The notes under the pieces: generated by a model
Seen by the model: the letters and a program-made list of their open reading frames with translations, nothing else
The model's database searches: none
Told to the model about the DNA's origin: nothing
Part shown: positions 4,130-63,224 of the stretch, piece by piece
Layout: the number at the start of each line of letters is the position of its first letter
Numbering within the stretch: the stretch's first letter is position 1
Made by a program: the position numbers and the translations under genes
DNA from: Octopus sinensis
Lineage: Eukaryota
Reading direction: 5' to 3'
NCBI RefSeq assembly: GCF_006345805.1
Contig: NC_043010.1
Span: 59,830,001-59,894,000 of the forward strand
Length of the DNA: 64,000 bases

Positions 4130-7100
4130 ATGAAGATGGTCTTAATAGCGATATGGATATTACAGTCTCTGCTTCACTGTTCTGTCTCTAAAGACATTGT
4201 TTACCATGTGAAAGAAGAGAACAGTCCTGTTATCAACATAGGAGACATTACTGCTGATTCCCAGTTAAAGGACACTGCATTATTATCGTTCAGTCAGTTG
4301 CAACAGAAGGGAACACAGCTGTTTAATGTGACCACCACTGGGAAGATATACACCACACAAACACTGGATGCTGAGTCTCTGTGTACTTTTGAGAAAGAAT
4401 GCTTTCACACAATTAAGGTAGCCGTTCATAAAGCAGGTAAATTTATAAAGATATTGAAAATTAAGGTGATTATAGAAGACATCAATGACCATCAACCAGA
4501 GTTTCCTGTGGAAGAAATTCAATTAACATTTGGAGAAGGAGATGGAATAGGTATGAAAAAGTCCATCCCCAATGCCATTGACAAAGATGTTGGATTACAG
4601 AACAGATTAGTGAATTACGAATTAAAGGGAAATAATCAACAGTTTTCTTTGTCCACATTCAAAAGAGCAGACGGAGTATCTTTTCTTGAAATTATATTAC
4701 AAGGGAAGTTAGACAGAGAGACGAAAGACAGCTATAATATAGAAGTGATTGCTAAGGATGGAGGAACTCCACCCAAACAGGGTGTCTTAAATGTGCACAT
4801 AACTGTGAAAGATGAAAATGATAACAGACCAATTTTCTCTGAGAAAACATACAATGTCTCTATACAAAATAACCATCAAAGAAATATACCAGTTGTTGTA
4901 ATGATGGCAGAAGACTCTGATATTGAAGAAAATGGTAAAGTTTCATATTATATCAGCCCAACAACGTCAACAGAATCAAAAGATAATTTTATTATAAATG
5001 AGAAAACTGGAGAAATATTCTTAAACAAAGAATCACAATTTGACAAAATGAAATCATTTAAATTATATATTGAAGCCAGAGATGGGGGCAACCCTCCTCT
5101 CAGTTCCATAGCAACGGTTATGGTAAATGTTATCAGCCAACACAACAATGCTCCAAATATTGATGTGAACTTTATTTCTACACAGAATCACAACACAGCT
5201 ACCATTCTGGAAGACATCAAAGTTGGTAGTTTCATTGCTTATGTGATGGTCACTGACAATGATGTTGGACACAATGGAGAGGTGAACTGTCATATCAAAG
5301 ACGACACATTCAAACTACAGTCAATGGGATCGAAGGAATATAAAATCGTTCTAAAGAAAGCAGTAGACAGAGAGACACAGGAACATTATCACTTTACTGT
5401 GTCGTGTGAAGATAAAGGATTACCTGCTCTGAAAACTGATAAAGATCTGTCAATCCAAGTGTTGGATGTGAATGATGTAGAACCACACTTTACGAAAGAC
5501 ACATTCAAGTTCCTTACCTATGAGAATGACAAAGCTAATTTCCCTATTGGCTTTATCAATGCTACAGACCCAGATATTGGTAAGGGAGGTGAATTGTCTT
5601 ATTCTCTGAGAAATAAACAGCAATATCGTCTGCCATTCCAGATTATCAACTCTGGCTTTATTTCAACAAACCAGTCTTTAGACAGAGAACACAGAGATTT
5701 CTATGAGTTTGAGGTTTTTGTGAAAGACAATGGAAGCCCATCTCTGAATAACACAGTGAATGTTGAAGTGGAAGTATTGGATAGAAATGATAATGCTCCA
5801 TATTTTACATTTCCTAGTGTTGACCCTTTCACTCTTAATGTCCACTATCATCCGCAAAGTAAGAACGACATCACAGTTCTGAAAGCATCTGATATAGACA
5901 GTCACATGAATGCTTTTCTCAGGTACGAAATCGTTTCAGGTAACGAGAGACAGTTATTTAAACTGGACTCGTTCACTGGTGTGTTATCTTACTCTCGCAC
6001 AGTTTACCAAAATGATGCCGGATCATATGAGCTTGAGTTTGTTGTGAAAGACAGTGGTACTCCAGTTCTGTCAGCAACAACTAGTGTGTCTTTGACACTG
6101 ACTGTTAGTAACAAGACGTCACCAATGTTCACAGCTGTGCACCTACCAAGTGATAACACCATAGATGCGACATTGTTGATTATCATTGTAGTAGCAGCTG
6201 TGATAGTATCTATAGCTATTGTGGTTTCTATAACCCTGTGTATTGTGAGATGTAACAATGTGAGAAATAGCTCATCTGAAAGAACAGCAGAAGAGAAACA
6301 GGCATACCAATGTCGCAATGAGATGAGACAGTTGATCTATCAAGGTAACAACAGTGTACCTGTGATGTCAGGTAATCGAGGAGAGATGTCAGACAGATAT
6401 GGTCATTCGAGGAGCCATTACTATCCTGAAGACTGGAAGACATCGACAATGAACAGGACACTTCAGAAATCTACACGGGTAAGTATTATTTGGAATATAT
6501 ATATTGTAAGTTTGTCTTCGTGTTGTAATAATTTGACTGCTATAAATATTACTTGGTGACATATATCTGATAAAAATTTCCTTTCAGAATTGTGTATCAT
6601 GTGATTTACTTGAAGACACTTTGTATAACCCAACACCATAGGCAGTAAATTGGTCAGAATGTGGCCACAGATATAGCTAGGCGGTAGATTGGTGCAGTGG
6701 GGAATATGTATCTCTTAAATGGCTTGTGTCAATTACTTTCACCTTTTTATGTTAAAGCATAACTTTCTTTATTTGTTAGTGGATGACATAAGCATCCTAG
6801 AATTGCCAGAATCAGTAGATGAAATACCTTGTTGTATTTATTCTGACTTCTTACCTTTTTATTACCTTTTTCTCTTGAAAAACGCCGCCGCCGTGGTGAT
6901 CTCATTCTCGCTCACAACATCATAAGCGGAAAGTGTAACCTCTTGAAAGAGCTGTTCTTCACTCCTGCTCCAGAGCATCGGCTGCGGGGTCATTCCGAAA
7001 AGCTCTATCTGCGACGATTTCATCTCAATCGAAGGAGAGGAGCTTTCTCCGTCCGGGTTGCGGATCCGTGGAACAAGCTGCCAGACGAGATGGTGAAGAT

Positions 7101-8993
7101 GCCGACGAACGCTTTGTTCAAAGCCTCCCTTGACCTCAAGTGGCCTGAACTCTTTACATGAACACCACCCTGTACTTAACTCCATGTCCCCCTACATGGC
7201 CTTGCTATTTGCTTTTGAGCCAAATTAACTAACTAACTAACTAACTATCCTTTGAATCCACCTACATTTTTGGTGACCACTGCAGTGTGGGACCAGAACC
7301 ATTTACGTGCCTTCACTAAATTATCGTTATTCGCTTCAAGCAATATATGGGCAGTCATAAACGTTTGTGCATTTATATTTGGTATTGTGGAGATGTTGAT
7401 TAGTCTATCTTTCAACAATACACCAAACTTATCATATAATAATAATAATGAAATTATTGTATGCAGTGCTGAGGTGCACCACAACATGTCAAAAGTGCAT
7501 ATAAAACACTTAACCCATGGAATTTAAACCTGTCAGTCTGGAGGCCACATGTTTGTTATTACATAATTATAAAGGGTGTATGTAGGCCACATGTTTGTTA
7601 TTACGTAATTAGAAAGAGTGTATGACATCCATTCGTGGGTTACATGGTCTTTGCGAGAAGGTGTTGAGACGAGCTGAAACACACTTTCGTTCTTCCACTG
7701 CATACTTCATTCATCCAGAACTTAATAACTATCTCCAGCACTTCAAACCACATCAATTCTAAGACTCTGTGGAAATATGTGAGGTGCTATGACATTATCT
7801 TCATTACTAACCAGCCTTAAAACTCACAATTGCTGGAAACGGAATGTGCATTGCTCTTGCAACATCAGAAAGTAACAACATAGTCATCTGCCTTTTCTCC
7901 TGTGAGACTTCTGACTTGGTGAAAGTTTTTTGCATCAGAGAGGAACCAAAGTACAATGTATTTGTGAGGGTTTTTAACCTCGTTAAATAACCTCTTGGCA
8001 CAGGTCAAATGATTTTCTTGGTTCTTTGGAGACAGGAATTAGCCTCTCCTCAGTACATAGGACAGGTGTCAAATGTGCTTGTGCACCTCAGTTCTGAGAG
8101 TCCATTCCAATGCTTGAATTTCCTTTACCATGGCCTCCTTTACTGGTTTTCTGGGATCATAATCAATAATGTTCTGAATCCATTGGATGAACTGCAGTGT
8201 CTTTCTAAAGTCTAAACATTTAGAAGAATTTAGTTCTCTTTAATACACTTCAAAAATTCTTGCTAGAGGCTTCCAATTTTACCCAAACTTTGAGTACGAA
8301 AGATCTTGCAGCATTTTACAAAGTTGGTAATATCTAAATCGCTGTGTTCCTCACTTATGTCAACAATAACTGCCTGATTTTTTTTATTTCATTTCTTTAG
8401 CATTTTATCTGACATAGTGTATCTGAAAAAATATACATCTTTTAATTGCTTCAAGTAATATACGGATAATTCAATATACTCAAAATACTTAATTACTCAA
8501 ATTTATTCTATAACAACATTACAGTATAACTGGTTGCTGTTTTATTTTACAGCAGAAATACAGTCAACCGATTGAGGTGACATCTTATGGAGACAACAGA
8601 CCATCTTCTAACTATCCCACTGACACATTGACCAGTCGTAAGAGCAGTGGACAGTGCTGGAGTGAGCGGTCAAGTAGACAGTATGAAGAAATACCAGCAA
8701 TGTCAGGTAGGACAATAATCCATTCTCATTTAATATTACACTAATTCATTACTAATTATTGTACTAATTATTGTTGTAGACTGAGATGTAATTAGTTCTG
8801 TCTGTGTGTCCCTAGAGTATTTCTGATGATGGTGATTTTTTCAGACATTGCTACATTAAAACAATCTTTTGCAGGGATCTATGGTAGCCAACAGGATACA
8901 CCAGTGAACCCCGAAAGACAACAGTATCAAGACAGATATGTGAAACCGCCAGAGAGACAGTTACCTTCAACACCAGATGTCATTACTAACTGA
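4130..8993 (+). CDS. Protocadherin copy 1 (6 EC, TM, cytoplasmic tail), about 873 aa
   Basis: join(4130-6478, 8553-8706, 8875-8993). Acceptor ttttcag|ATC at 4102; signal peptide MKMVLIAIWILQSLLHCSVS; EC1 has the protocadherin C-X5-C motif (CTFEKEC); DxNDxxP, LDRE and DxG motifs; TM LLIIIVVAAVIVSIAIVVSITLCIV; GT-AG introns in phases 0 and 1. Confidence 0.95.
6864..7246 (+). mobile_element. 5'-truncated CR1-group LINE 3' end in intron 2 of copy 1
   Basis: Encodes LFSLEKRRRRGDLI...LRGHSEKL...FSVRVADPWNKLP, typical of the CR1 ORF2 C-terminus. Ends in a (TAAC)n tail, is CpG-rich relative to its flanks, and is absent from the homologous intron position in copies 3 and 4. Confidence 0.85.
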
Positions 8994-12195: not shown

Positions 12196-15100
12196 ATGAA
12201 GATGGTCTTAATAGCGATTTGGATATTACAGTCTCTGCTTCACTGTTCTGTCTCTAAAGACATTGTTTACCATGTGAAAGAAGAGAACAGTCCTGTTATC
12301 AACATAGGAGACATTACTGCTGATTCCCAGTTAAAGGACACTGCATTATTATCGTTCAGTCAGTTGCAACAGAAGGGAACACAGCTGTTTAATGTGACCA
12401 ACACTGGGAAGATATACACCACACAAACACTGGATGCTGAGTCTCTGTGTACTTTTGAGAAAGAATGCTTTCACACAATTAAGGTAGCCGTTCATAAAGC
12501 AGGTAAATTTATAAAGATATTGAAAATTAAGGTGATTATAGAAGACATCAATGACCATCAACCAGAGTTTCCTGTCGAAGAAATTAAGATGGAATTTAGA
12601 GAAGCAGATGGGAAAGGGACAAAACAATCGATTCCCAATGCCATTGACAAAGATGTTGGATTACAGAATAGATTAGTGAATTACGAATTGAAGGGAAATA
12701 ACCAACAGTTTTCTTTGTCCACATTCAAAAGAGCAGACGGAGTATCATTTCTTGAAATTATATTACAAGGGAAGTTAGACAGAGAGACGAAAGACAGCTA
12801 TAATATAGAAGTGATTGCTAAGGATGGAGGAACTCCACCCAAACAGGGTGTCTTAAATGTGCACATAACTGTGGAAGATGAAAATGATAACAGACCAATT
12901 TTCTCTGAGAAAACATACAATGTCTCCATACAAAATAACCATCAAAGAAATAGACCAGTTGTTGTAATGATAGCAGAAGACTCTGATATTGGAGAAAATG
13001 GTAAAGTTTCATATTATATCAGCCCAACAACATCAACAGATTCAAAAGATAATTTTATTATAAATGAGAAAACTGGAGAAATATTCTTAGCCAAAGAATC
13101 GCAATTTGACAAAATGAAATCATTTAAATTATACATTGAAGCCAGAGATGGTGGTAACTCTCCTCTCAGTTCCATTGCAACTGTTATGGTAAATGTCATC
13201 AACCAGCAGAACAATCCTCCAAATATTGATGTGAACTTTATTTCTACACAGAATCACAACACAGCTACCATTCTGGAAGACATCAAAGTTGGTAGTTTCA
13301 TTGCTTATGTGATGGTCACTGACAATGATGTTGGACACAATGGAGAGGTGAACTGTCATATCAAAGACGACACATTCAAACTACAGTCAATGGGATCGAA
13401 GGAATATAAAATAGTTCTAAAGAAAGCAGTAGACAGAGAGACACAGGAACATTATCACTTTACTGTGTCGTGTGAAGATAAAGGATTACCTGCTCTGAAA
13501 ACTGATAAAGATCTGTCAATCCAAGTGTTGGATGTGAATGATGTAGAACCACACTTTACGAAAGACACATTCAAGTTCCTTACCTATGAGAATGACAAAG
13601 CTAATTTCCCTATTGGCTTTATCAATGCTACAGACCCAGATATTGGTAAGGGAGGTGAATTGTCTTATTCTCTGAGAAATAAACAGCAATATCGTCTGCC
13701 ATTCCAGATTATCAACTCTGGCTTTATTTCAACAAACCAGTCTTTAGACAGAGAACACAGAGATTTCTATGAGTTTGAGGTTTTTGTGAAAGACAATGGA
13801 AGCCCATCTCTGAATAACACAGTGAATGTTGAAGTGGAAGTATTGGATAGAAATGATAATGCTCCATATTTTACATTTCCTAGTGTTGACCCTTTCACTC
13901 TTAATGTCCACTATCATCCGCAAAGTAAGAACGACATCACAGTTCTGAAAGCATCTGATATAGACAGTCACATGAATGCTTTTCTCAGGTACGAAATCGT
14001 TTCAGGTAACGAGAGACAGTTATTTAAACTGGATTCGTTCACTGGTGTGTTATCTTACTCTCGCACAGTTTACCAAAATGATGCCGGATCATATGAGCTT
14101 GAGTTTGTTGTGAAAGACAGTGGTACTCCAGTTCTGTCGGCAACAACTAGTGTGTCTTTGACCCTGACTGTTAGTAACAAGACGTCACCAATGTTCACAG
14201 CTGTGCACCTACCAAGTGATAACACAATAGATGCGACATTGTTGATTATCATTGTAGTAGCAGCTGTGATAGTATCTATAGCTATTGTGGTTTCTATAAC
14301 CCTGTGTATTGTGAGATGTAACAATGTGAGAAATAGCTCATCTGAAAGAACAGCAGAAGAGAAACAGGCATACCAATGTCGCAATGAGATGAGACAGTTG
14401 ATCTATCAAGGTAACAACAGTGTACCTGTGATGTCAGGTAATCAAGGAGAGATGTCAGACAGATACGGTCATTCGAGGAGCCATTACTATCCAGATGACT
14501 GGAAGATGTCTACAATCAACAGAACACTCCAGAAATCCACAAAGGTAAGCTCTATTTCCAGTAAACATCTTCAAGTAAATAATCTCCAAATTAAATGCCT
14601 AATTTGTTTCATCTCTGGATAAATGTAATGTTGTATGAATTACAACTGCTAAATCATGTCATTTTTCAGAATTGTTATGAAAGAAGATCATTTCGTAGAA
14701 AAGATTGTCGATTAAAAGTTATAGTACACAATATGCAACGCATCGTAAACTACTAACTCTTTCTGAAACCATATTCTGATAGTGGAAGACAGTTGTTAAC
14801 CATTTGAATCTTGATAAAGGTCATTCTGCTAGATAAATGTAGACATTCATCTAATGTTCCATACATTGTATAGTTTGTGAACAAATTGAATGCTGATTTG
14901 CTTACAGGGTACACTTTGTAGGAAAGTGGGAAAAAAATCACACAGTAACGTCTGTATATATCCTGATTGAAAGATTCCCTCTTGAATTGAACAAGTTGTA
15001 AAGTTTTACCATTGATGAATATCAATAACAGTATTTCAGCCCTTCATTTTCTGTTGGTGTGGGTTCTGTCTGAATACCAAGAGCTCTTCCAAGAACTTGA

Positions 15101-19069: not shown

Positions 19070-22000
19070 ATGAAGATGGTCTTAATAGCGATATGGATAT
19101 TACAGTCTCTGCTTCACTGTTCTGTCTCTAAAGACATTGTTTACCATGTGAAAGAAGAGAACAGTCCTGTTATCAACATAGGAGACATTACTGCTGATTC
19201 CCAGTTAAAGGACACTGCATTATTATCGTTCAGTCAGTTGCAACAGAAGGGAACACAGCTGTTTAATGTGACCACCACTGGGAAGATATACACCACACAA
19301 ACACTGGATGCTGAGTCTCTGTGTACTTTTGAGAAAGAATGCTTTCACACAATTAAGGTAGCAGTTCATAAAGCAGGTAAATTTATAAAGATATTGAAAA
19401 TTAAGGTGATTATAGAAGACATCAATGACCATCAACCAGAGTTTCCTGTCGAAGAAATTAAATTAACATTTGAGGAAGGTGATGGAGTAGGTATGAAAAA
19501 GTCCATCCCCAATGCCATTGACAAAGATGTTGGATTACAGAACAGATTAGTGAATTACGAATTGAAGGGAAATAACCAACAGTTTTCTTTGTCCACATTT
19601 CAGATAGCTGATAGTTTGCTTTCATTAGAAATCGTTTTAGAAGGAAAGTTAGATAGGGAGACGAAAGACAGCTATAATATAGAAGTGATTGCTAAGGATG
19701 GAGGAAGTCCACCCAAACAGGGTGTCTTAAATGTGCACATAACTGTGAAAGATGAAAATGATAACAGACCAATTTTCTCTGATAAAACATACAATGTCTC
19801 TATACAAAATAACCATCAAAGGAATAGACCAGTTGTTGTAATGTTGGCAGAAGACGCTGATATTGGAGAAAATGGTAAAGTTTCATATTATATCAGTTCC
19901 TTAACATCTAAAGACTCAATGAACAACTTTAGGATAGAGCAGCAATCAGGGGAAATATTCCAGTCTAAACATTCTAATTTAGAAAAGAAGAAATCATTTA
20001 AATTATACATTGAAGCCAGAGATGGGGGCAACCCTCCTCTCAGTTCCATAGCAACTGTTATGGTAAATGTCATCAACCAGCAGAACAATCCTCCAAATAT
20101 TGATGTGAACTTTATTTCTACACAGAATCACAACACAGCTACTATTCTGGAAGACATCAAAGTTGGTAGTTTCATTGCTTATGTGATGGTCACTGACAAC
20201 GATGTTGGACACAATGGACAGGTGAACTGTCATATCAAAGATGACACATTCAAACTACAGTCAATGGGATCGAAGGAATATAAAATAGTTCTAAAGAAAG
20301 CAGTAGACAGAGAGACACAGGAACATTATCACTTTACTGTGTCGTGTGAAGATAAAGGATTACCTGCTCTGAAAATTGATAAAGATCTGTCAATCCAAGT
20401 GTTGGATGTGAATGATGTAGAGCCACACTTTACGAAAGACACATTCAAGTTCCTTACCTATGAGAATGACAAAGCTAATTTCCCTATTGGCTTTATCAAT
20501 GCTACAGACCCAGATATTGGTAAGGGAGGTGAATTGTCTTATTCTCTGAGAAATAAACAGCAATATCGTCTGCCATTCCAGATTATCAACTCTGGCTTTA
20601 TTTCAACAAACCAGTCTTTAGACAGAGAACACAGAGATTTCTATGAGTTTGAGGTTTTTGTGAAAGACAATGGAAGCCCATCTCTGAATAACACAGTGAA
20701 TGTTGAAGTGGAAGTATTGGATAGAAATGATAATGCTCCATATTTTACATTTCCTAGTGTTGACCATTTCACTCTTAATGTCCACTATCATCCGCAAAGT
20801 AAGAACGACATCACAGTTCTGAAAGCATCTGATATAGACAGTCACATGAATGCTTTTCTCAGGTACGAAATCGTTTCAGGTAACGAGAGACAGTTATTTA
20901 AACTGGATTCGTTCACTGGTGTGTTATCTTACTCTCGCACAGTTTACCAAAATGATGCCGGATCATATGAGCTTGAGTTTGTTGTGAAAGACAGTGGTAC
21001 TCCAGTTCTGTCAGCAACAACTAGTGTGTCTTTGACACTGACTGTTAGTAACAAGACGTCACCAATGTTCACAGCTGTGCACCTACCAAGTGATAACACA
21101 ATAGATGCGACATTGTTGATTATCATTGTAGTAGCAGCTGTGATAGTATCTATTGCTATTGTGGTTTCTATAACCCTGTGTATTGTGAGATGTAACAATG
21201 TGAGAAATAGCTCATCTGAAAGAACAGCAGAAGAGAAACAGGCATACCAATGTCGCAATGAGATGAGACAGTTGATCTATCAAGGTAACAACAGTGTACC
21301 TGTGATGTCAGGTAATCGAGGAGAGATGTCAGACAGATACGGTCATTCGAGGAGCCATTACTATCCAGATGACTGGAAGATGTCTACAATGAACAGAACA
21401 CTCCAGAAATCTACACGGGTAAGTATTATTTGGAATATATATATATTGTAAGTTTGTCTTCGTGTTGTAATAATTTGACTGCTATAAATATTACTTGGTG
21501 ACATATATCTGATAAAAATTTCCTTTCAGAATTGTGTATCATGTGATTAGTATGTGATTTACTTGAAGACACTTTGTATAAATAATCACCATAGGCAGTA
21601 AATTGGTCAGATTGTGGCCCTAGATATATAGCTTGGCAGTAGATTGGTGCAGTGGGGAATATGTATCTCTTAAATGACTTGTGTCAATTACTTTCACCTC
21701 TTTATGTTAAAGCATAAATTTCCTTATTCGTTAGTGGATGACATAAGCATCCTAGTATTGCCAGAATCAGTAGATGAAATACCCTGTTGTATCTGTTCTC
21801 AATTCTTACCTTTTTATTCCAAATTTTAGTAAGGACTACTCTACATTTTATCAGTGTTTGAGGGCCTGAATATGCTTATAGGTACTAGAGCTTTCTGTCT
21901 AAAATATATCCACATTCTGATATTTATATATGCAACTGTTACCTATTGTAGAATGTGTGGTATTATTCCTATGTTATATATATATATATATATGCACACA

Positions 22001-28594: not shown

Positions 28595-31500
28595 ATGAAG
28601 ATGGTCTTAATAGCGATATGGATATTACAGTCTCTGCTTCACTGTTCTGTCTCTAAAGACATTGTTTACCATGTGAAAGAAGAGAACAGTCCTGTTATCA
28701 ACATAGGAGACATTACTGCTGATTCCCAGTTAAAGGACACTGCATTATTATCGTTCAGTCAGTTGCAACAGAAGGGAACACAGCTGTTTAATGTGACCAC
28801 CACTGGGAAGATATACACCACACAAACACTGGATGCTGAGTCTCTGTGTACTTTTGAGAAAGAATGCTTTCACACAATTAAGGTAGCCGTTCATAAAGCA
28901 GGTAAATTTATAAAGATATTGAAAATTAAGGTGATTATAGAAGACATCAATGACCATCAACCAGAGTTTCCTGTCGAAGAAATTAAACTGGAGTTTAGAG
29001 AAGGAGATGGAAAAGGTAGGAAAAAGTCCATCCCCAATGCCATTGACAAAGATGTTGGATTGCAGAACAGATTAGTGAATTATGAATTGAAGGGAAATAA
29101 CCAACAGTTTTCATTGTCCACATTCCAAAGAGCTGATGGAGTATCATCTCTGGAAATTATATTACAAGGGAAGTTAGACAGAGAGACGAAAGACAGCTAT
29201 AATATAGAAGTGATTGCTAAGGATGGAGGAACTCCACCCAAACAGGGTGTCTTAAATGTGCACATAACTGTGAAAGATGAAAATGATAACAGACCAATTT
29301 TCTCTGAGAAAACATACAATGTCTCTATACAAAGTAACCATCAAAGAAATATGCCGGTTATTGTCATGTTGGCAAAAGACTCTGATATTGGAGAGAATGG
29401 TAAAGTTTTTTATCATTTCAGTCCAACAACATCAACAAATGCAAAACATCATTTCTTAATAGATTCAGATTCGGGAGAACTTTACTTGAACAAACATTCT
29501 GAGTTACAGAAGAAAAAATCATTTAAATTGTATATTGAAGCCATAGATGGGGGCAACCCTCCTCTCAGTTCCATAGCAACGGTTATGGTAAATGTCATCA
29601 ACCAGCAGAACAATCCTCCAAATATTGATGTGAACTTTATTTCTACACAGAATCACAACACAGCTACCATTCTGGAAGACATCAAAGTTGGTAGTTTCAT
29701 TGCTTATGTGATGGTCACTGACAATGATGTTGGACACAATGGACAGGTGAACTGTCATATCAAAGATAACACATTCAAACTACAGTCAATGGGATCGAAG
29801 GAATATAAAATAGTTCTAAAGAAAGCAGTAGACAGAGAGACACAGGAACATTATCACTTTACTGTGTCGTGTGAAGATAAAGGATTACCTGCTCTGAAAA
29901 CTGATAAAGATCTGTCAATCCAAGTGTTGGATGTGAATGATGTAGAACCACACTTTACGAAAGACACATTCAAGTTCCTTACCTATGAGAATGACAAAGC
30001 TAATTTCCCTATTGGCTTTATCAATGCTACAGACCCAGATATTGGTAAGGGAGGTGAATTGTCTTATTCTCTGAGGAATAAACAGCAATATCGTCTGCCA
30101 TTCCAGATTATCAACTCTGGCTTTATTTCAACAAACCAGTCTTTAGACAGAGAACACAGAGATTTCTATGAGTTTGAGGTTTTTGTGAAAGACAATGGAA
30201 GCCCATCTCTGAATAACACAGTGAATGTTGAAGTGGAAGTATTGGATAGAAATGATAATGCTCCATATTTTACATTTCCTAGCGTTGACCCTTTCACTCT
30301 TAATGTCCACTATCATCCGCAAAGTAAGAACGACATCACAGTTCTGAAAGCATCTGATATAGACAGTCACATGAATGCTTTTCTCAGGTATGAAATCGTT
30401 TCAGGTAACGAGAGACAGTTATTCAAACTGGATTCGTTCACTGGTGTGTTATCTTACTCTCGCACAGTTTACCAAAATGATGCCGGATCATATGAGCTTG
30501 AGTTTGTTGTGAAAGACAGTGGTACTCCAGTTCTGTCAGCAACAACTAGTGTGTCTTTGACACTGACTGTTAGTAACAAGACGTCACCAATGTTCACAGC
30601 TGTGCACCTACCAAGTGATAACACAATAGATGCGACATTGTTGATTATCATTGTAGTAGCAGCTGTGATAGTATCTATAGCCATTGTGGTTTCTATAACC
30701 CTGTGTATTGTGAGATGTAACAACGTGAGAAATAGCTCATCTGAAAGAACAGCAGAAGAGAAACAGGCATACCAATGTCGCAATGAGATGAGACAGTTGA
30801 TCTATCAAGGTAACAACAGTGTACCTGTGATGTCAGGTAATCGAGGAGAGATGTCAGACAGATATGGTCATTCGAGGCACCATTACTATCCCGAAGACTG
30901 GAAGATGTCTACTATGAACAGAACACTCCAGAAATCTACACGTGTAAGTATTATTTGGAATATATATATTGTAAGTTTGTCTTCATGTTGTAATAATTTC
31001 ACTGCTGTAAATATTACTTGGTGACATATATCTGATAAAAATTTCCTTTTAGAATTTTGTATCATGTGGTTAGTATGTGATTTACTTGAAGACACTTTGT
31101 ATAACCCAACACCATAGGCAGTAAATTGGTCAGAATGTGGCCATAGATATATAGCTTGGCAGTAGATTGGTGCAGTGGGGAATATGTATCTCTTAAATGA
31201 CTTGTGTTAATTACTTTCACCTCTTTATGTTAAAGCATGACTTACTTTATTTGTTAGTGGATGATATAAGCATCCTAGAATTGCTAGAATCAGCAGATAG
31301 AATACCCTGTTGTATCTATTCTCATTTCTTAACTTTTTATTCCAAATTTTAGTGAGGACTACTTTGCCTTCTATCTTTGTGGGATTGACAAAAGATGTAC
31401 AATTATGAGCATTGAACTGAGAGAAGCATTTGTGCATCATTTGTGGTTCCTTGCTATATTTGTTCTAACTATTTACCCTCTCACTTCATCTATGGGCTGC

Positions 31501-39631: not shown

Positions 39632-42600
39632 ATGAAGATGGTCTTAATAGCGATATGGATATTACAGTCTCTGCTTCACTGTTCTGTCTCTAAAGACATT
39701 GTTTACCATGTGAAAGAAGAGAACAGTCCTGTTATCAACATAGGAGACATTACTGCTGATTCCCAGTTAAAGGACACTGCATTATTATCGTTCAGTCAGT
39801 TGCAACAGAAGGGAACACAGCTGTTTAATGTGACCACCACTGGGAAGATATACACCACACAAACACTGGATGCTGAGTCTCTGTGTACTTTTGAGAAAGA
39901 ATGCTTTCACACAATTAAGGTAGCCGTTCATAAAGCAGGTAAATTTATAAAGATATTGAAAATTAAGGTGATTATAGAAGACATCAATGACCATCAACCA
40001 GAGTTTCCTGTGGAACAAATTAAGATGGAATTTGATGAAAGTCATGGAAAAGGTACAAAACAATCGATTCCCAATGCCATTGACAAAGATGTTGGATTAC
40101 AGAACAGATTAGTGAATTACGAATTGAAGGGAAATAACCAACAGTTTTCTTTGTCCACATTTCAGATAGCAGATAGTTTGCTGTCATTAGAAATCGTTTT
40201 AGAAGAAAAGTTAGATAGGGAGACGAAAGACAGATATGATATAGAAGTGATTGCTAAGGATGGAAGCAATCCACCCAAACAGGGTGTCTTAAATGTGCAC
40301 ATAACTGTGAAAGATGAAAACGATAACAGACCAATTTTCTCTGATAAAACATACAATGTCTCTATACAAAGTAACCATCAAAGGAATATACCGGTTATTG
40401 TCATGTTGGCAAAAGACTCTGATATTGGAGAAAATGGTAAAGTTTCATATTATATCAGTTCCTTAACATCTAAAGACTCAATGAACAACTTTAGGATAGA
40501 GCAGCAATCAGGGGAAATATTCCAGTCTAAACATTCTAATTTAGAAAAGAAGAAATCATTTAAATTATATATTGAAGCCAGAGATGGGGGCAGCCCTCCT
40601 CTCAGTTCCATTGCAACTGTTATGGTAAATGTCATCAACCAGCAGAACAATCCCCCAAATATTGATGTGAACTTTATTTCTACACAGAATCACAACACAG
40701 CTACCATTCTGGAAGACATCAAAGTTGGTAGTTTCATTGCTTATGTGATGGTCACTGACAATGATGTTGGACACAATGGACAGGTGAACTGTCATATCAA
40801 AGATGACACATTCAAACTACAGTCAATGGGATCGAAGGAATATAAAATAGTTCTAAAGAAAGCAGTAGACAGAGAGACACAGGAACATTATCACTTTACT
40901 GTGTCGTGTGAAGATAAAGGATTACCTGCTCTGAAACTGATAAAGATCTGTCAATCCAAGTGTTAGATGTGAATGATGTAGAACCACACTTTACGAAAGA
41001 CACATTCAAGTTCCTTACCTATGAGAATGACAAAGCTAATTTCCCTATTGGCTTTATCAATGCTACAGACCCAGATATTGGTAAGGGAGGTGAATTGTCT
41101 TATTCTCTGAGAAATAAACAGCAATATCGTCTGCCATTCCAGATTATCAACTCTGGCTTTATTTCAACAAACCAGTCTTTAGACAGAGAACACAGAGATT
41201 TCTATGAGTTTGAGGTTTTGTGAAAGACAATGGAAGCCCATCTCTGAATAACACAGTGAATGTTGAAGTGGAAGTATTGGATAGAAATGATAATACTCCA
41301 TATTTTACATTTCCTAGTGTTGACCCTTTCACTCTTAATGTCCACTATCATCCGCAAAGTAAGAACGACATCACAGTTCTGAAAGCATCTGATATAGACA
41401 GTCACATGAATGCTTTTCTCAGGTACGAAATCGTTTCAGGTAACGAGAGACAGTTATTTAAACTGGATTCGTTCACTGGTGTGTTATCTTACTCTCGCAC
41501 AGTTTACCAAAATGATGCCGGATCATATGAGCTTGAGTTTGTTGTGAAAGACAGTGGTACTCCAGTTCTGTCAGCAACAACTAGTGTGTCTTTGACACTG
41601 ACTGTTAGTAACAAGACGTCACCAATGTTCACAGCTGTGCACCTACCAAGTGATAACACAATAGATGCGACATTGTTGATTATCATTGTAGTAGCAGCTG
41701 TGATAGTATCTATAGCTATTGTGGTTTCTATAACCCTGTGTATTGTGAGATGTAACAATGTGAGAAATAGCTCATCTGAAAGAACAGCAGAAGAGAAACA
41801 GGCATACCAATGTCGCAATGAGATGAGACAGTTGATCTATCAAGGTAACAACAGTGTACCTGTGATGTCAGACAGATATGGTCATTCGAGGAGTCATTAC
41901 TATCCCGAAGACTGGAAGACGTCAACAATGAACAGAACACTCCAGAAGTCAACAAGGGTAAGTATTATTTTTAGAAAACTATGAGTGTATTTGACAAAAG
42001 TAAAATTAAGTACATGTCAATGGTCTATTAGAATGAGTAAATGATTGATGAGGATGGCTTGAAATATTTGTTACCAGCTCTTTATATTCTGAGTTCAAAT
42101 CTAGCCGTACCCTACTTGGGTTGTAGATCTGAATGTGTCACCAAGTTTAACATCAACTCTTTCCAGTTTAGAACAATTAGTGGAGGTGATCACTTCCTTT
42201 ATCCTCTTACTAATTGATAAGGAATCAATAAAAATCTAGGGTCAGTATATTTAAATATACCCTAAATTAGAGATTATAGCCATGTGTCTATAGTAGAAAT
42301 GAATATGATTTAACCCTTGTAAATATTTGATAATTAATTATTGCTATATGATAAGTAGGGCCTGGAGCTTGAAATGAGAAATCTCCCTGGAATTTAGCTG
42401 GATGATGTCAAGAAGAATGGCACTGCCATCATTTCTCTTCAAGTTACTCTTCACATCACTGCTGACATCTGACATAAATATTGCTGTCACATATGAACCA
42501 TTTCAACTTTATTCCTCTGTTTTCTCCGCAAGATTGCCTATATGAAGGGGGCCAATCTATATGAGCCCTATCAGATTTGAGGCATTCTGTTGTTTTTTTT

Positions 42601-56635: not shown

Positions 56636-57555
<920 letters not shown>

Positions 57556-58084
57556 TAATGATGCTCAACATCTGTGTGTCTGTATTGCATGAAAGGGAAT
57601 AGAAGATACATAAAATTTACTTTCCATTGTCGTTAGGGGGCTTAAAGTGGGGGGAACAGCCTCTCTGAAAGTCCAAATACCTCCGATTTCCATGAAAACA
57701 ACAACATAACTACCAGCTACTAAATAAAGATGATTTCCAAAATTTCACCATCTTACATTATTATATAAGTCCCCCCCCCCAATGGGGTTTATAACATGGG
57801 GCAGAGCCCCTTTACATCCGCTTGTCATGGAAGATACATAAAATTTAAGAGTGTGTTCTTGGAGTAAGTTTACTACAAAACTTCAACAATGCATATCTCA
57901 TGTGTATATATATGTATATATATATATATATATTTACATAGATATATATATATACACATGTATGTATGTATATGTGTATGTATATATATACATGTATGTG
58001 TATATATATATATACATGTGTGTATATGTGTATGTGTGTATATATATATATATATACATGTATGTATATGTGTATGTATATATA

Positions 58085-62413: not shown

Positions 62414-63224
62414 CAGAATCACAATCATCTTACAGAGGACCAGAAACAACACACCATTGGCCATGAGGAATCTCTGAGAATTCACAATGGCTTCCAACCA
62501 AATTGGAATTGAGCAGAGAGAAACAACATGAAGAAATCCTGGAAGAATTAGGTTTAAAATGTCTACTGCCTTTTCATAACATCTGTCAATGGGGGTCTAA
62601 CGAATAATCTGCAAATTATTAATCCTACATGATATATACTCACTACACCCATATAATAATAATAAAACATTGTGTACAGCGCTCAGGTGCACTACAACTC
62701 ATCTAAAGTGTATGTATAGTGCATAGGGTAATGTACAAGCGTCAGGAAAAGAACAGTGCATGAGTCATGACATACACATATGTGTATGAGTATGGAAGGG
62801 GGACAATCAGGTGTAGTTTTGGCGGATTTCAGAAAGCATGAGGGCCTTAAAGGATGCAGTGTCATGGCAGTCAACAACTGACGCAGGCAATTTGTTCCAT
62901 GCTTCAGCAACTCTGAGCATGAAAAAATGTTTCCGAAAGTCATGGGAGCTGTGCTGTTTTCTGACTTTGTAGGCATGTCCACGTGTGTTGGACACATGGA
63001 GATCAAAAAGGTGTTCAGTGTTGTTGTTGGTGAGGTGGTTGATAACCTTGTGGGTGTTTACCAAGTCCGTCGCCAGATGCCGGAGCTTCAGTGAATCCAT
63101 GCCCAGGGAAATATATTTATTTTAGGAGTGTATAGCAGTGAGAGAGAGAGACCATTACCAAGACAGACTTGTGAAAACTCCAAAGAGACAATTACCTTCA
63201 CCTCCAGGTGATGCTAGAAATTGA
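62414..63224 (+). pseudogene. Two diverged protocadherin tail exons (ghost unit 8): 62414-62551 and 63126-63224
   Basis: tttag|CAG acceptor, ending KQHEEILEEL-G|gt (compare RQYEEIPAMS-G). The second exon reads G-VYSS...HYQDRLVKTPKRQLPSPPGDARN* (compare G-IYGS...QYQDRYVKPPERQLPSTPDVITN*). Each exon carries one frameshift. Confidence 0.8.
62655..63108 (-). mobile_element. 5'-truncated CR1-group LINE 3' end inside the last intron of ghost unit 8
   Basis: Minus ORF 62807-63100: SLKLRHLATDL...NTRGHAYKV...FFMLRVAEAWNKLPASVV; (TTA)n tail at about 62655. Confidence 0.85.

Follow-up and report, generated by a model that had tools for sequence, protein, structure and literature searches.

Non-canonical calcium ligands at the EC3-EC4 junction of octopus protocadherins and a predicted antiparallel mode of pairing

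The EC3-EC4 junction with non-canonical calcium ligands in the protocadherins, neuronal recognition proteins, of the present window (the whole 64,000-nucleotide stretch of Octopus sinensis DNA analysed) is real, as confirmed by sequence comparison. We consider it likely, with a probability of about 0.6, that the coleoid EC3-EC4 is a partial calcium junction, with one Ca2+ likely at site 3 and a looser joint, in proteins that retain a vertebrate-like antiparallel pairing. In each family member sampled, most Ca2+ ligands have been lost at this joint, which lies within the recognition unit and is canonical in the solved vertebrate structures. The loss is common to octopus and cuttlefish proteins. 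The convergence of cephalopod protocadherins with the neuronal barcodes of vertebrates is often cited, and the coleoid literature searched says nothing on their binding mode.

Results

Gene array
Five protocadherin copies were observed in the window, starting at 4130, 12196, 19070, 28595 and 39632. The large first coding exon of copy 1 encodes a six-repeat protocadherin (one Pfam Cadherin_2 and five Cadherin matches, and a transmembrane helix), the nearest solved six-repeat structures being Pcdh8.1, gammaB4 and PCDH10. The cysteine pair of the EC1 E-F loop (C65 and C71), as in clustered and delta protocadherins, is invariant (98/98). Two cytoplasmic exons of its own follow each of the five copies, in place of the shared constant exons of the vertebrate clustered loci. 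These genes are ordinary family members, and their closest named match in Octopus sinensis is 88-92% identical. In copy 5, single-base deletions at two homopolymer runs (~40,934 and ~41,217) shift the reading frame in EC4 and EC5. The copies differ at 63 residues of EC2-EC3 versus 3 residues of EC1 and EC4 combined (up to residue 434), so they are not five independent observations. Position 5136 reads A (Asn, as in copies 2-5) in all overlapping contigs of four public runs, and the linker Ser of copy 1 may therefore be private or an assembly error.

Table 1. Positions of the features discussed, in window coordinates (residues in mature numbering)
Feature	Positions	Strand	Remarks
Copy 1, large first coding exon	4130..6478	+	Signal peptide, EC1-EC6, transmembrane helix, start of cytoplasmic tail; donor GT at 6479
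Copy 1, own two cytoplasmic exons	8553..8990	+	~8553-8708 and ~8870-8990
EC3 of copy 1	4832..5155	+	Includes the EC3-4 linker
EC3 xE (E11) position	4868..4870	+	Asn in copy 1
EC3 LDRE equivalent	5033..5044	+	SQFD, in the hypervariable E-F loop
Copy 1 EC3-4 linker	5135..5149	+	SQHNN, replacing DxNDN
Copy 2 EC3-4 linker	13201..13215	+	NQQNN
Copy 3 EC3-4 linker	20075..20089	+	NQQNN
Copy 4 EC3-4 linker	29600..29614	+	NQQNN
Copy 5 EC3-4 linker	40637..40651	+	NQQNN; frameshift further on, in EC4 and EC5
EC4 of copy 1	5156..5485	+	Extended A strand; conserved cysteine pair (5288-5290, 5405-5407)
EC4 DxD motif	5255..5263	+	Site 3 ligands D134 and D136, kept
EC4 xDx aspartate	5411..5413	+	Site 3 ligand D195, kept
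K76, EC1 F strand	4415..4417	+	Coupled to M/K353 (5246-5248, EC4 B strand)
I88, EC1, conserved hydrophobic	4451..4453	+	With F348 (5231-5233), aligns to Pcdh8.1 dimer core Leu86/Phe344
K90, EC1 G strand	4457..4459	+	Charge swaps in step with E383
E383, EC4 E strand	5336..5338	+	Partner of K90
E295, EC3 F strand	5072..5074	+	Coupled to EC2 R159 (4664-4666) and F165 (4682-4684)

EC3-EC4 junction
At EC3-EC4, 3-4 of the nine canonical side-chain Ca2+ ligands are kept in all five copies, and the five junctions of the four intact copies keep, in order, 9, 9, 3-4, 9 and 9. This result upholds the initial annotation, which had reported the absence of canonical ligands in all five copies, although the copies are near-identical outside EC2-EC3 and one is frameshifted. 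Its observations that the xE motif of EC3 is lost (the glutamate position being N or S across copies) and that EC4 keeps DxD and xDxG were also borne out. The LDRE motif is degenerate, as had been stated, but the register given was off by two: the true equivalent is SQFD, SNLE or SELQ, before the FDKM, LEKK or LQKK named as its replacement, and with this alignment two residues earlier 4/5 copies retain an acidic residue (D or E) at E69. The freed loop does lie inside the variable patch, since mature residues 279-287 differ among copies. Misassigned repeat boundaries, named at the outset as the finding that would undo these observations, were checked for, and Pfam, alignments to solved protocadherins in the PDB and the AlphaFold strand pattern agree on the boundaries.

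Homolog survey
The homologs compared were the best 120 of each search, a sample leaving out the more distant cephalopod clades, Nautilus, annelids, brachiopods and other spiralians, and cnidarians. The 214 cephalopod-type homologs show 45-92% identity and represent at least five named species; a search of 50% representatives gave mostly giant cadherins and yielded one bivalve lead (P0262) and vertebrate controls. Among the matches listed, EC3-EC4 is canonical in 0/214 cephalopod-type homologs and keeps 2-5 of nine ligands, and each other junction is canonical in 191-212/214, a contrast that chance does not explain. The site-1/2 residues at EC3-EC4 are present in few of these listed matches (E11 0/214, D67 13/214, E69 24/214, D100 5/214, D103 0/214), with no acidic residue at any of the five positions in 151/214, and the site 3 residues of EC4 are retained (D134 214/214, D136 209/214, D195 213/214). 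Asn stands at the D103 position in 213/214 and at the D100 position in 187/214 of the same matches, and the EC3 loop positions reach 2.0-3.7 bits across them. The conserved amides that replace acids at D103 and D100 fit a structured junction equally with a loose one.

This survey of the linker in molluscs, suggested by the initial annotation, also revealed a milder form in 73 bivalve/gastropod-type proteins among the matches listed, in which E11 and D100 are kept, D67 is lost and D103 is replaced by N (73/73); Glu at E11 was observed in 70/73 of them versus 0/214 cephalopod-type proteins. A DxND linker is present at EC3-EC4 in 17/18 vertebrate units examined. The milder state suggests that the ligands were probably lost in two steps, in an order for which vertebrate proteins are the sole outgroup. 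The molluscan pattern is common to the freshwater mussels Potamilus and Sinanodonta, and adaptation to salinity was rejected as its cause on this ground. The EC4 cysteine pair occurs in 122/124 rows (119 homologs and the five window copies) and in 73/73 other mollusc-type rows among the matches listed; a role for it as a specific compensation for Ca2+ loss was rejected, since it is found in 3/4 Mobula (ray) units with canonical linkers.

Inter-domain couplings
The charges of K90 in EC1 and E383 in EC4 are complementary in 211/215 rows (KE 109, EK 94, ER 6 and DK 2), with 0 like-charge rows. This pair ranked first (r = -0.99) of 14,573 inter-domain pairs in an analysis with an effective depth of ~130-140 that recovered few intra-domain contacts. 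On the EC5-6 tree, 16 flips of the pair were counted, and a sister-pair test gave 7/10 versus 4/59 (p = 3e-5). Coupling between EC2 and EC3 is less pronounced (p = 0.025 and 0.074), and in 73 bivalve/gastropod rows the charge swap was not found (best r -0.55, nothing outstanding). Folding back at EC3-EC4 was considered and rejected, as no strong coupling was observed for EC3:EC4, EC2:EC5 or EC1:EC6 (best charge r -0.36, -0.49 and -0.43, respectively).

The coupled EC1:EC4 and EC2:EC3 positions sit on the published interface faces of antiparallel dimers. K90 and E383 map by offset to Glu96-Lys398, an intermolecular salt bridge of the human PCDH1 antiparallel dimer, and M353 and E383 align to gammaB K338 and gammaB 369, both interface residues. 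At the level of coevolving residues, the signature of the antiparallel EC1:EC4/EC2:EC3 dimer of clustered and delta protocadherins is present, from which we infer that window-type proteins form antiparallel EC1-4 dimers in trans.

Structure models
The AlphaFold model of EC3-4 (pLDDT 90; pTM 0.57, with no pTM control and with Ca2+ outside the model) shows an rmsd of 3.5-5 A to straight protocadherin EC3-4 and of 14.7-15.7 A to the kinked PCDH15 EC9-10. In the EC1-6 model, EC3-6 superposes on straight gammaB2 EC3-6 at 4.2 A over 405 residues, and a large bend appears at the canonical EC2-3 junction (rmsd ~27 A to EC1-3 structures), so that inter-domain angles in these models are unreliable. A prediction of the EC1-4 homodimer scored 0.10 in two runs in which the alignment was unused and controls were not folded, and it is given no weight here. 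The initial annotation had proposed a hinge between rigid arms and a binding geometry unlike that of vertebrate protocadherins. The flanking junctions are indeed canonical and extra flexibility is plausible, but the modelled EC3-4 is extended and not kinked, and the proposed geometry is not supported, the strongest couplings, EC1:EC4 and EC2:EC3, falling on vertebrate dimer faces.

Discussion

Herein, we propose a partial calcium junction to describe the EC3-EC4 joint of coleoid protocadherins. The sequences show that E11, D67, D100 and D103, which serve only sites 1 and 2, are lost, along with E69 in most cases, that D134, D136 and D195 of site 3 are retained in EC4 and that the other four junctions are canonical. 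One Ca2+ is probably held at site 3, with EC4 still folded, and EC4-6 would gain freedom of tilt and twist relative to EC1-3 with no fixed kink. Coevolution points to an antiparallel EC1-4 dimer in trans, in which the F/G face of EC1 would pack against the B/E face of EC4 in one of two charge states (K76/K90 facing M353/E383, or the reverse, D/E76/E90 facing K353/K383), and EC2 against EC3, which bear most of the isoform variation. The loose joint would then lie between the two contact zones and likely allow EC4 to reach EC1 of the partner, a speculative step, and meanwhile the surfaces of EC2:EC3 might diversify together with the E-F loop freed in EC3.

A straight, rigid EC3-EC4 is possible, although we give it considerably less credence. 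Ca2+ at site 3 would be combined with an amide network (N100, Q101, N103 and N104) and possibly Na+ or a weak second Ca2+, the joint would be as stiff as a canonical one, the dimer would be vertebrate-like, and the change would mainly free the EC3 E-F loop. Asn at D103 in 213/214 and 73/73 of the matches listed, the extended AlphaFold EC3-4 and the conserved EC1:EC4 register are consistent with this rigidity, as is the high Ca2+ and Na+ content of marine haemolymph; however, freshwater mussels share the molluscan pattern, which salinity does not explain, and the two-domain AlphaFold pTM is just 0.57. The non-canonical PCDH24 EC2-3 is straight and rigid (PMC8691648), but it holds two ions, whereas the site-1/2 positions of cephalopods are non-acidic in 151/214 of the matches listed, and the one-ion precedent, PCDH15 EC5-6, is flexible even at high Ca2+ (PMC7547225). 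A Ca2+-free bent hinge between rigid arms, with binding that departs from the antiparallel EC1-4 dimer of vertebrates, is improbable. Every site-1/2 ligand is gone, as is the side chain of N102, and PCDH15 EC9-10 and Drosophila N-cadherin bend by ~80-90 degrees without Ca2+ (PMC5120219), yet the site 3 acids here are conserved like those of canonical junctions, the couplings join EC1:EC4 and EC2:EC3 with weak fold-back pairs, and the AlphaFold model fits a kinked linker poorly. The likeness that the initial annotation had drawn to these two Ca2+-free linkers is not supported: DXD and XDX are kept (214, 209 and 213/214 among the matches listed).

It is highly improbable that some tissues regain ligands through A-to-I RNA editing, with the Asn codons at D100, D103 and E11 recoded to Asp. 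These codons (AAC/AAT) are one edit from Asp, and editing has been reported in octopus protocadherins (10.1101/714394). Nevertheless, 0/42 Logan-assembled proteins have Asp at either D100 or D103, or an acidic residue (Asp/Glu) at E11, no A>G was seen at 4868, 5135 or 5144 among the rows listed from four runs of contigs, which drop minority variants, and D103 to N is fixed in the bivalve and gastropod proteins. We find scarcely any room for errors in the EC boundaries or for an artefact arising from a single homogenised or misassembled array. The near-identity of the copies outside EC2-3 and the homopolymer frameshifts of copy 5 would fit an artefact, but Pfam, PDB alignments and AlphaFold concur on the boundaries, and the 214 homologs among the matches listed, which come from at least five named species, show this pattern again.

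Beyond the partial calcium junction itself, a two-tier code is conceivable, though we rate it as rather unlikely. A binary EC1:EC4 charge class, flipped at least 16 times, would be combined with hypervariable EC2:EC3 surfaces and the newly freed E-F loop of EC3, EC1:EC4 would close through the one-calcium joint in a separate step after an EC2:EC3 match, and the stepwise loss of Ca2+ at this joint in molluscs would have been a structural precondition of the cephalopod expansion to hundreds of genes. Apart from the two-tier code, the family still bears the imprint of the antiparallel dimer of vertebrates, its two-state EC1:EC4 charge pair predicts which isoforms cannot pair, and the intermediate state of bivalves and gastropods offers a natural series for Ca2+ loss. 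No description of the EC3-EC4 junction or of the EC1:EC4 charge code was found in the literature searched, in which key coleoid papers are incompletely covered, and term searches of PMC9068888 and PMC6339937 found no mention of calcium. The coleoid expansions that these papers describe consist, like the window, of tandem whole-gene duplicates.

Comparison with known systems

Judged by analogy, EC3-EC4 most likely carries one Ca2+, as PCDH15 EC5-6 does, rather than forming a Ca2+-free kink. PCDH15 EC5-6 has a modified XEX, no DRE, the linker PPNNQ and largely kept DXD/XDX, and binds one Ca2+ at site 3 in several orientations (PMC7547225). The octopus junction shares the modified XEX, the missing DRE, Asn at D103 in a degenerate DXNDN and the kept DXD/XDX, and this site-3-only pattern prevails across the 214 homologs among the matches listed. 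The N102 position is Q/H in octopus versus N in PCDH15 EC5-6, and that linker belongs to a tip-link cadherin and lies outside the binding tips, whereas the octopus linker is part of the EC1-4 recognition unit itself, in a family hundreds strong. In PCDH24 (CDHR2) EC2-3 and PCDH15 EC3-4, site 1 is lost and sites 2 and 3 are kept, the state closest to that of bivalves and gastropods (PMC8691648, PMC7547225); in cephalopod proteins E11 and D100 are also gone. These two-calcium precedents are split, PCDH15 EC3-4 being flexible (PMC7547225) and PCDH24 EC2-3 straight and rigid, with site 3 still occupied despite loss of the N102 side chain (PMC8691648).

The Ca2+-free kinked linkers of PCDH15 EC9-10 and Drosophila N-cadherin EC2-3 resemble the octopus junction in the loss of XEX, DRE and DXNDN (PMC5120219). 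In contrast, the second repeat of PCDH15 EC9-10 lacks DXD and XDX as well (PMC5120219), and this linker has a dedicated bend interface, whereas octopus keeps both motifs and its model is extended; loss of all five motifs was found in none of the 214 homologs among the matches listed. The vertebrate clustered and delta protocadherins share with octopus six repeats on one exon, the EC1 E-F cysteine pair and the extended EC4 A strand (PMC5115871, PMC5106212, PMC5001838, PMC7082078), together with EC2-EC3 variation, the I88/F348 core and the EC1:EC4 and EC2:EC3 couplings. Octopus genes have cytoplasmic exons of their own, unlike the vertebrate clusters with their shared constant exons, and the vertebrate delta EC1-4 structures hold three Ca2+ in every linker, whereas the octopus EC3-EC4, judging from its residues, lacks the canonical motifs.

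Results

The junctions from EC1-2 to EC5-6 of the four intact copies carry, in order, 9, 9, 3-4, 9 and 9 of the nine side-chain Ca2+ ligands, named here as E11, D67, E69, D100, N102, D103, D134, D136 and D195 in the usual E-cadherin numbering, with its allotment to sites 1-3. Pfam, alignments to solved protocadherins and predicted strands concur on the repeat boundaries of the initial annotation. In copy 1 the EC3-4 linker reads SQHNN and in the other four it reads NQQNN; N or S occupies the xE glutamate position of EC3, and EC4 retains DxD and xDxG. The cadherin Ca2+ motifs are listed in the available text of PMC5115871 and PMC5120219. The Ser at D100 of copy 1 is Asn in all contigs covering it from four public runs. 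The earlier description, in which EC3-4 is non-canonical in all five copies, the remaining linkers are canonical, the EC3 xE motif is gone and the EC4 motifs are kept, was therefore borne out. LDRE is indeed replaced, with SQFD, SNLE or SELQ there instead, but the quoted register was two residues too late, and realignment two residues earlier leaves the E69 position still acidic in four of the five copies. An N-glycosylation sequon lies in EC3 strand A, five residues ahead of the lost E11, and is kept in 209 of 215 rows. A cysteine pair in EC4 adjoins a site 3 aspartate; it is conserved in molluscs and also found in ray clustered protocadherins.

This EC3-4 pattern is real and common to every cephalopod-type protein sampled. 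The 214 homologs scored (119 of the best 120 matches, leaving out P0059, the window's own protein, plus 3 and 92 new rows from further searches) show 45-92% identity to copy 1, and those with a species name belong to three Octopus species, Argonauta and the cuttlefish Acanthosepion (Sepia) pharaonis; a cuttlefish protein was also present in three of seven unnamed cephalopod-type clusters looked up. Among the matches listed, none of the 214 has a canonical EC3-4 junction and 2-5 of nine ligands are retained, whereas at the remaining four, in order, 197, 191, 205 and 212 of the proteins are fully canonical. Canonical residues at EC3-4 were counted as 0 for E11, 13 for D67, 24 for E69, 5 for D100, 1 for N102 and 0 for D103; the EC4 ligands of site 3 are retained in 214 (D134), 209 (D136) and 213 (D195). 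The substitute linker is itself conserved, with N at D100 in 187/214, Q at 101 in 165/214, Q or H at N102 in 177/214 and N at D103 in 213/214.

For non-cephalopod molluscs, the search query was P0262, a protein of the bivalve Tegillarca. The complete-EC1-4 filter was passed by 74 of the best 120 rows; the 46 left out were truncated rows and, for the most part, vertebrate proteins and fragments of multi-repeat cadherins. Removing 3 vertebrate rows (71 remaining) and adding two Tegillarca units gave 73 rows, of which 33 are named (29 bivalve, 4 gastropod) and 40 unnamed. At EC3-4, among the matches listed, E11 is kept in 70 and D100 in 72, D103 is N in 73/73, and E69 and N102 are kept in 26 and 12. 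D134, D136 and D195 are retained in 73, 72 and 73, and EC2-3 is fully canonical in 62. The state is thus graded, with E11 and D100 mostly retained in these molluscs and gone, or nearly so, in the cephalopod proteins sampled. The three vertebrate rows have a canonical EC3-4, and 17 of 18 vertebrate units carry a DxND linker there. The coelacanth protocadherin alpha-C1-like protein P0271 has an EC3-4 linker without both aspartates, indicating that isolated vertebrate losses occur.

On its + strand the window contains octopus protocadherin genes in tandem. Each first exon codes for a signal peptide followed by six cadherin repeats and a transmembrane helix, and each of the five is followed by two cytoplasmic exons of its own. 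An isolated last-exon-like fragment lies near the window end, and no first exon was found between 44 and 63 kb; a long AT/AC dinucleotide-rich simple repeat is a source of spurious open frames. Among the matches listed, the closest ones with a species name belong to Octopus sinensis, Argonauta hians, O. vulgaris and O. bimaculoides. In X5, one public sequencing run whose RNA label is a guess, contig ends at 6475 run on into the second-exon start, so spliced transcripts of this protocadherin family exist. Variable residues among the five copies number 1/103 in EC1, 24/111 in EC2, 39/108 in EC3 and 2/92 in EC4 up to residue 434; since variation is almost confined to EC2-EC3, the copies are not independent observations. 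Across 4130-41984, up to 51 bases differ in EC2 and up to 59 in EC3, with many of the changes synonymous. The copies appear mosaic, with an EC3 common to copies 3 and 5, and together with the near-identical EC1 and EC4-6 this looks like what domain-restricted gene conversion would produce. In copy 5, two homopolymer runs have each lost one base and the reading frame is shifted, which reflects either a pseudogene or an assembly error; for the corresponding sites of copy 1, no such deletion was listed from four runs.

Coordinates of features in the window
Feature	Position	Strand
Sixth gene, tail (cytoplasmic exons) upstream of copy 1	824-1266	
Copy 1, large first exon start	4130	+
Copy 2, large first exon start	12196	+
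Copy 3, large first exon start	19070	+
Copy 4, large first exon start	28595	+
Copy 5, large first exon start	39632	+
K76 codon	4415-4417	
K90 codon	4457-4459	
N-glycosylation sequon, EC3	4853-4861	
M353 codon	5246-5248	
EC4 cysteine pair	5288-5290, 5405-5407	
E383 codon	5336-5338	
Copy 5 deletions	~40,934, ~41,217	
AT/AC-rich simple repeat	~56,700-57,630	
Last-exon-like fragment	63132-63206	

Couplings were analyzed in 215 aligned rows (the 214 homologs and copy 1; effective depth ~130-140; mature numbering). The top inter-domain couplings join EC1 to EC4 (K90-E383, K76-M353, K76-E383 and K90-M353), EC2 to EC3 (F165-E295 and R159-E295) and EC1 to EC3 (F67-T258). K90/E383 (r = -0.99) ranks at the top of 14,573 inter-domain pairs, its states being KE in 109 rows, EK in 94, ER in 6, DK in 2 and other in 4, with no like-charge row among the 215. 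The pair flips 16 times on the EC5-6 tree, and among 69 sister pairs residue 383 changed in 7 of the 10 with a change at 90 and in 4 of the 59 without one (p = 3e-5). Both charge states are present in cuttlefish and within each of three Octopus species; no such swap was seen in the 73 other mollusc-type rows. An EC5:EC6 charge anticorrelation was also observed between R499 and D560 (r = -0.77, 215 rows), which could be intramolecular or tied to a cis interface like that of vertebrate clustered protocadherins.

Discussion

The initial annotation proposed a binding geometry unlike that of vertebrate clustered protocadherins, which is probably wrong because the EC1:EC4 and EC2:EC3 couplings fall on the vertebrate dimer faces. 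The coupled residues sit on strands F and G of EC1, strands B and E of EC4, the D-E region of EC2 and strand F of EC3, the same faces as are named for the vertebrate protocadherin dimer in the available text of PMC7082078. I88 and F348, hydrophobic in 215/215 and 209/215 rows, occupy the aligned positions of Pcdh8.1 Leu86 and Phe344, which lie in the middle of its EC1:EC4 interface; M353 aligns to gammaB K338 and E383 to gammaB 369. By offset, without direct alignment, K90/383 corresponds to PCDH1 Glu96/Lys398, two residues that form a salt bridge between the partner molecules, with the charges the other way round in PCDH20; in position, again without direct alignment, R159-E295 is similar to the R158-E290 bridge of Pcdh19. 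An intramolecular EC1:EC4 contact would require a U-turn at EC2-3, yet that junction is canonical. Folding back at EC3-4 was rejected, as it would couple EC3:EC4, EC2:EC5 and EC1:EC6, where couplings are weak. Against the antiparallel reading, however, the EC2:EC3 pairs are marginal (p = 0.025 and 0.074), few intra-domain contacts were recovered, and the 73 other mollusc-type rows lack the charge swap. The LDRE-equivalent E-F loop ranks with the most variable segments of EC3 in the 214 homologs, in agreement with its earlier placement inside a variable patch. The EC1 E-F loop contacts the partner's EC3 E-F loop in PCDH1, 18 and 19 dimers (PMC7082078, available text), and K69-M287 and K69-K291 are weakly coupled in the 215 rows, suggesting a possible role of the EC3 loop in recognition. 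Relaxed constraint accounts for its variability just as well, and the five copies hardly differ in EC1.

RNA editing of the EC3-4 Asn codons to Asp was also considered, but Asp occurs at these positions in 0/42 Logan-assembled proteins, and the rows shown for four runs include no editing-type row at the Asn codons, although contigs can miss minority editing. In the simplest reading of the cephalopod, bivalve, gastropod and vertebrate proteins sampled, the ligands were lost in two steps, site 1 in a molluscan ancestor or earlier and then site 2 in coleoids.

Herein, we propose that one Ca2+ would occupy site 3 of EC3-4, that EC4-6 would gain moderate freedom of tilt and twist relative to EC1-3, and that an antiparallel EC1-4 trans dimer would form with two charge classes unable to pair with each other. 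More speculatively, the loose joint might permit EC1:EC4 closure apart from EC2:EC3; that such states exist in vertebrates is shown by crystal forms of gammaA in which EC1:EC4 is disengaged (PMC5106212, available text). A two-state EC1:EC4 charge code in cephalopod protocadherins predicts two mutually non-pairing classes.

In the literature covered, with supplements and most subscription journals outside its scope, no paper was found that deals with the structure of protocadherins from cephalopods or other molluscs, or with their calcium sites. The available text has no mention of calcium, Ca2+, EC3 or DXNDN in PMC6339937, of calcium in PMC9068888, or of calcium, Ca2+, domain or motif in PMC9795677; PMC10084454, PMC5001838 and 10.1101/714394 were also covered.

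The Ca2+-free kink proposed earlier, like that of PCDH15 EC9-10, is probably wrong, since the site-3 motifs are retained and the pattern of PCDH15 EC5-6 fits. PCDH15 EC9-10 has lost both DXD and XDX from its second repeat as well (PMC5120219, available text), whereas both are present in octopus. The AlphaFold model of EC3-4 (143 sequences; pLDDT 90.4, pTM 0.57) superposes at ~3.5-5 A on straight protocadherin EC3-4 and at 14.7-15.7 A on the kinked PCDH15 EC9-10; this extended shape is weak evidence, as the EC1-6 model is bent at the canonical EC2-3, AlphaFold works without ions and the fold had no control. PCDH15 EC5-6 has a modified XEX, no DRE, the linker PPNNQ and mostly unchanged site-3 motifs; each of its three observed conformations holds one Ca2+ at site 3, and their orientations differ substantially (PMC7547225, available text). 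It matches the motif pattern of the octopus junction. In PCDH24 EC2-3, where the N102 side chain is absent, site 3 is still filled, and the junction holds two ions and is straight and rigid (PMC8691648, available text). Because of these precedents, octopus EC3-4 likely binds one Ca2+ at site 3 and is probably, but not assuredly, flexible. It would represent a kind of cadherin linker already known, with site 3 only, here within a protocadherin recognition unit, a setting apparently undescribed.
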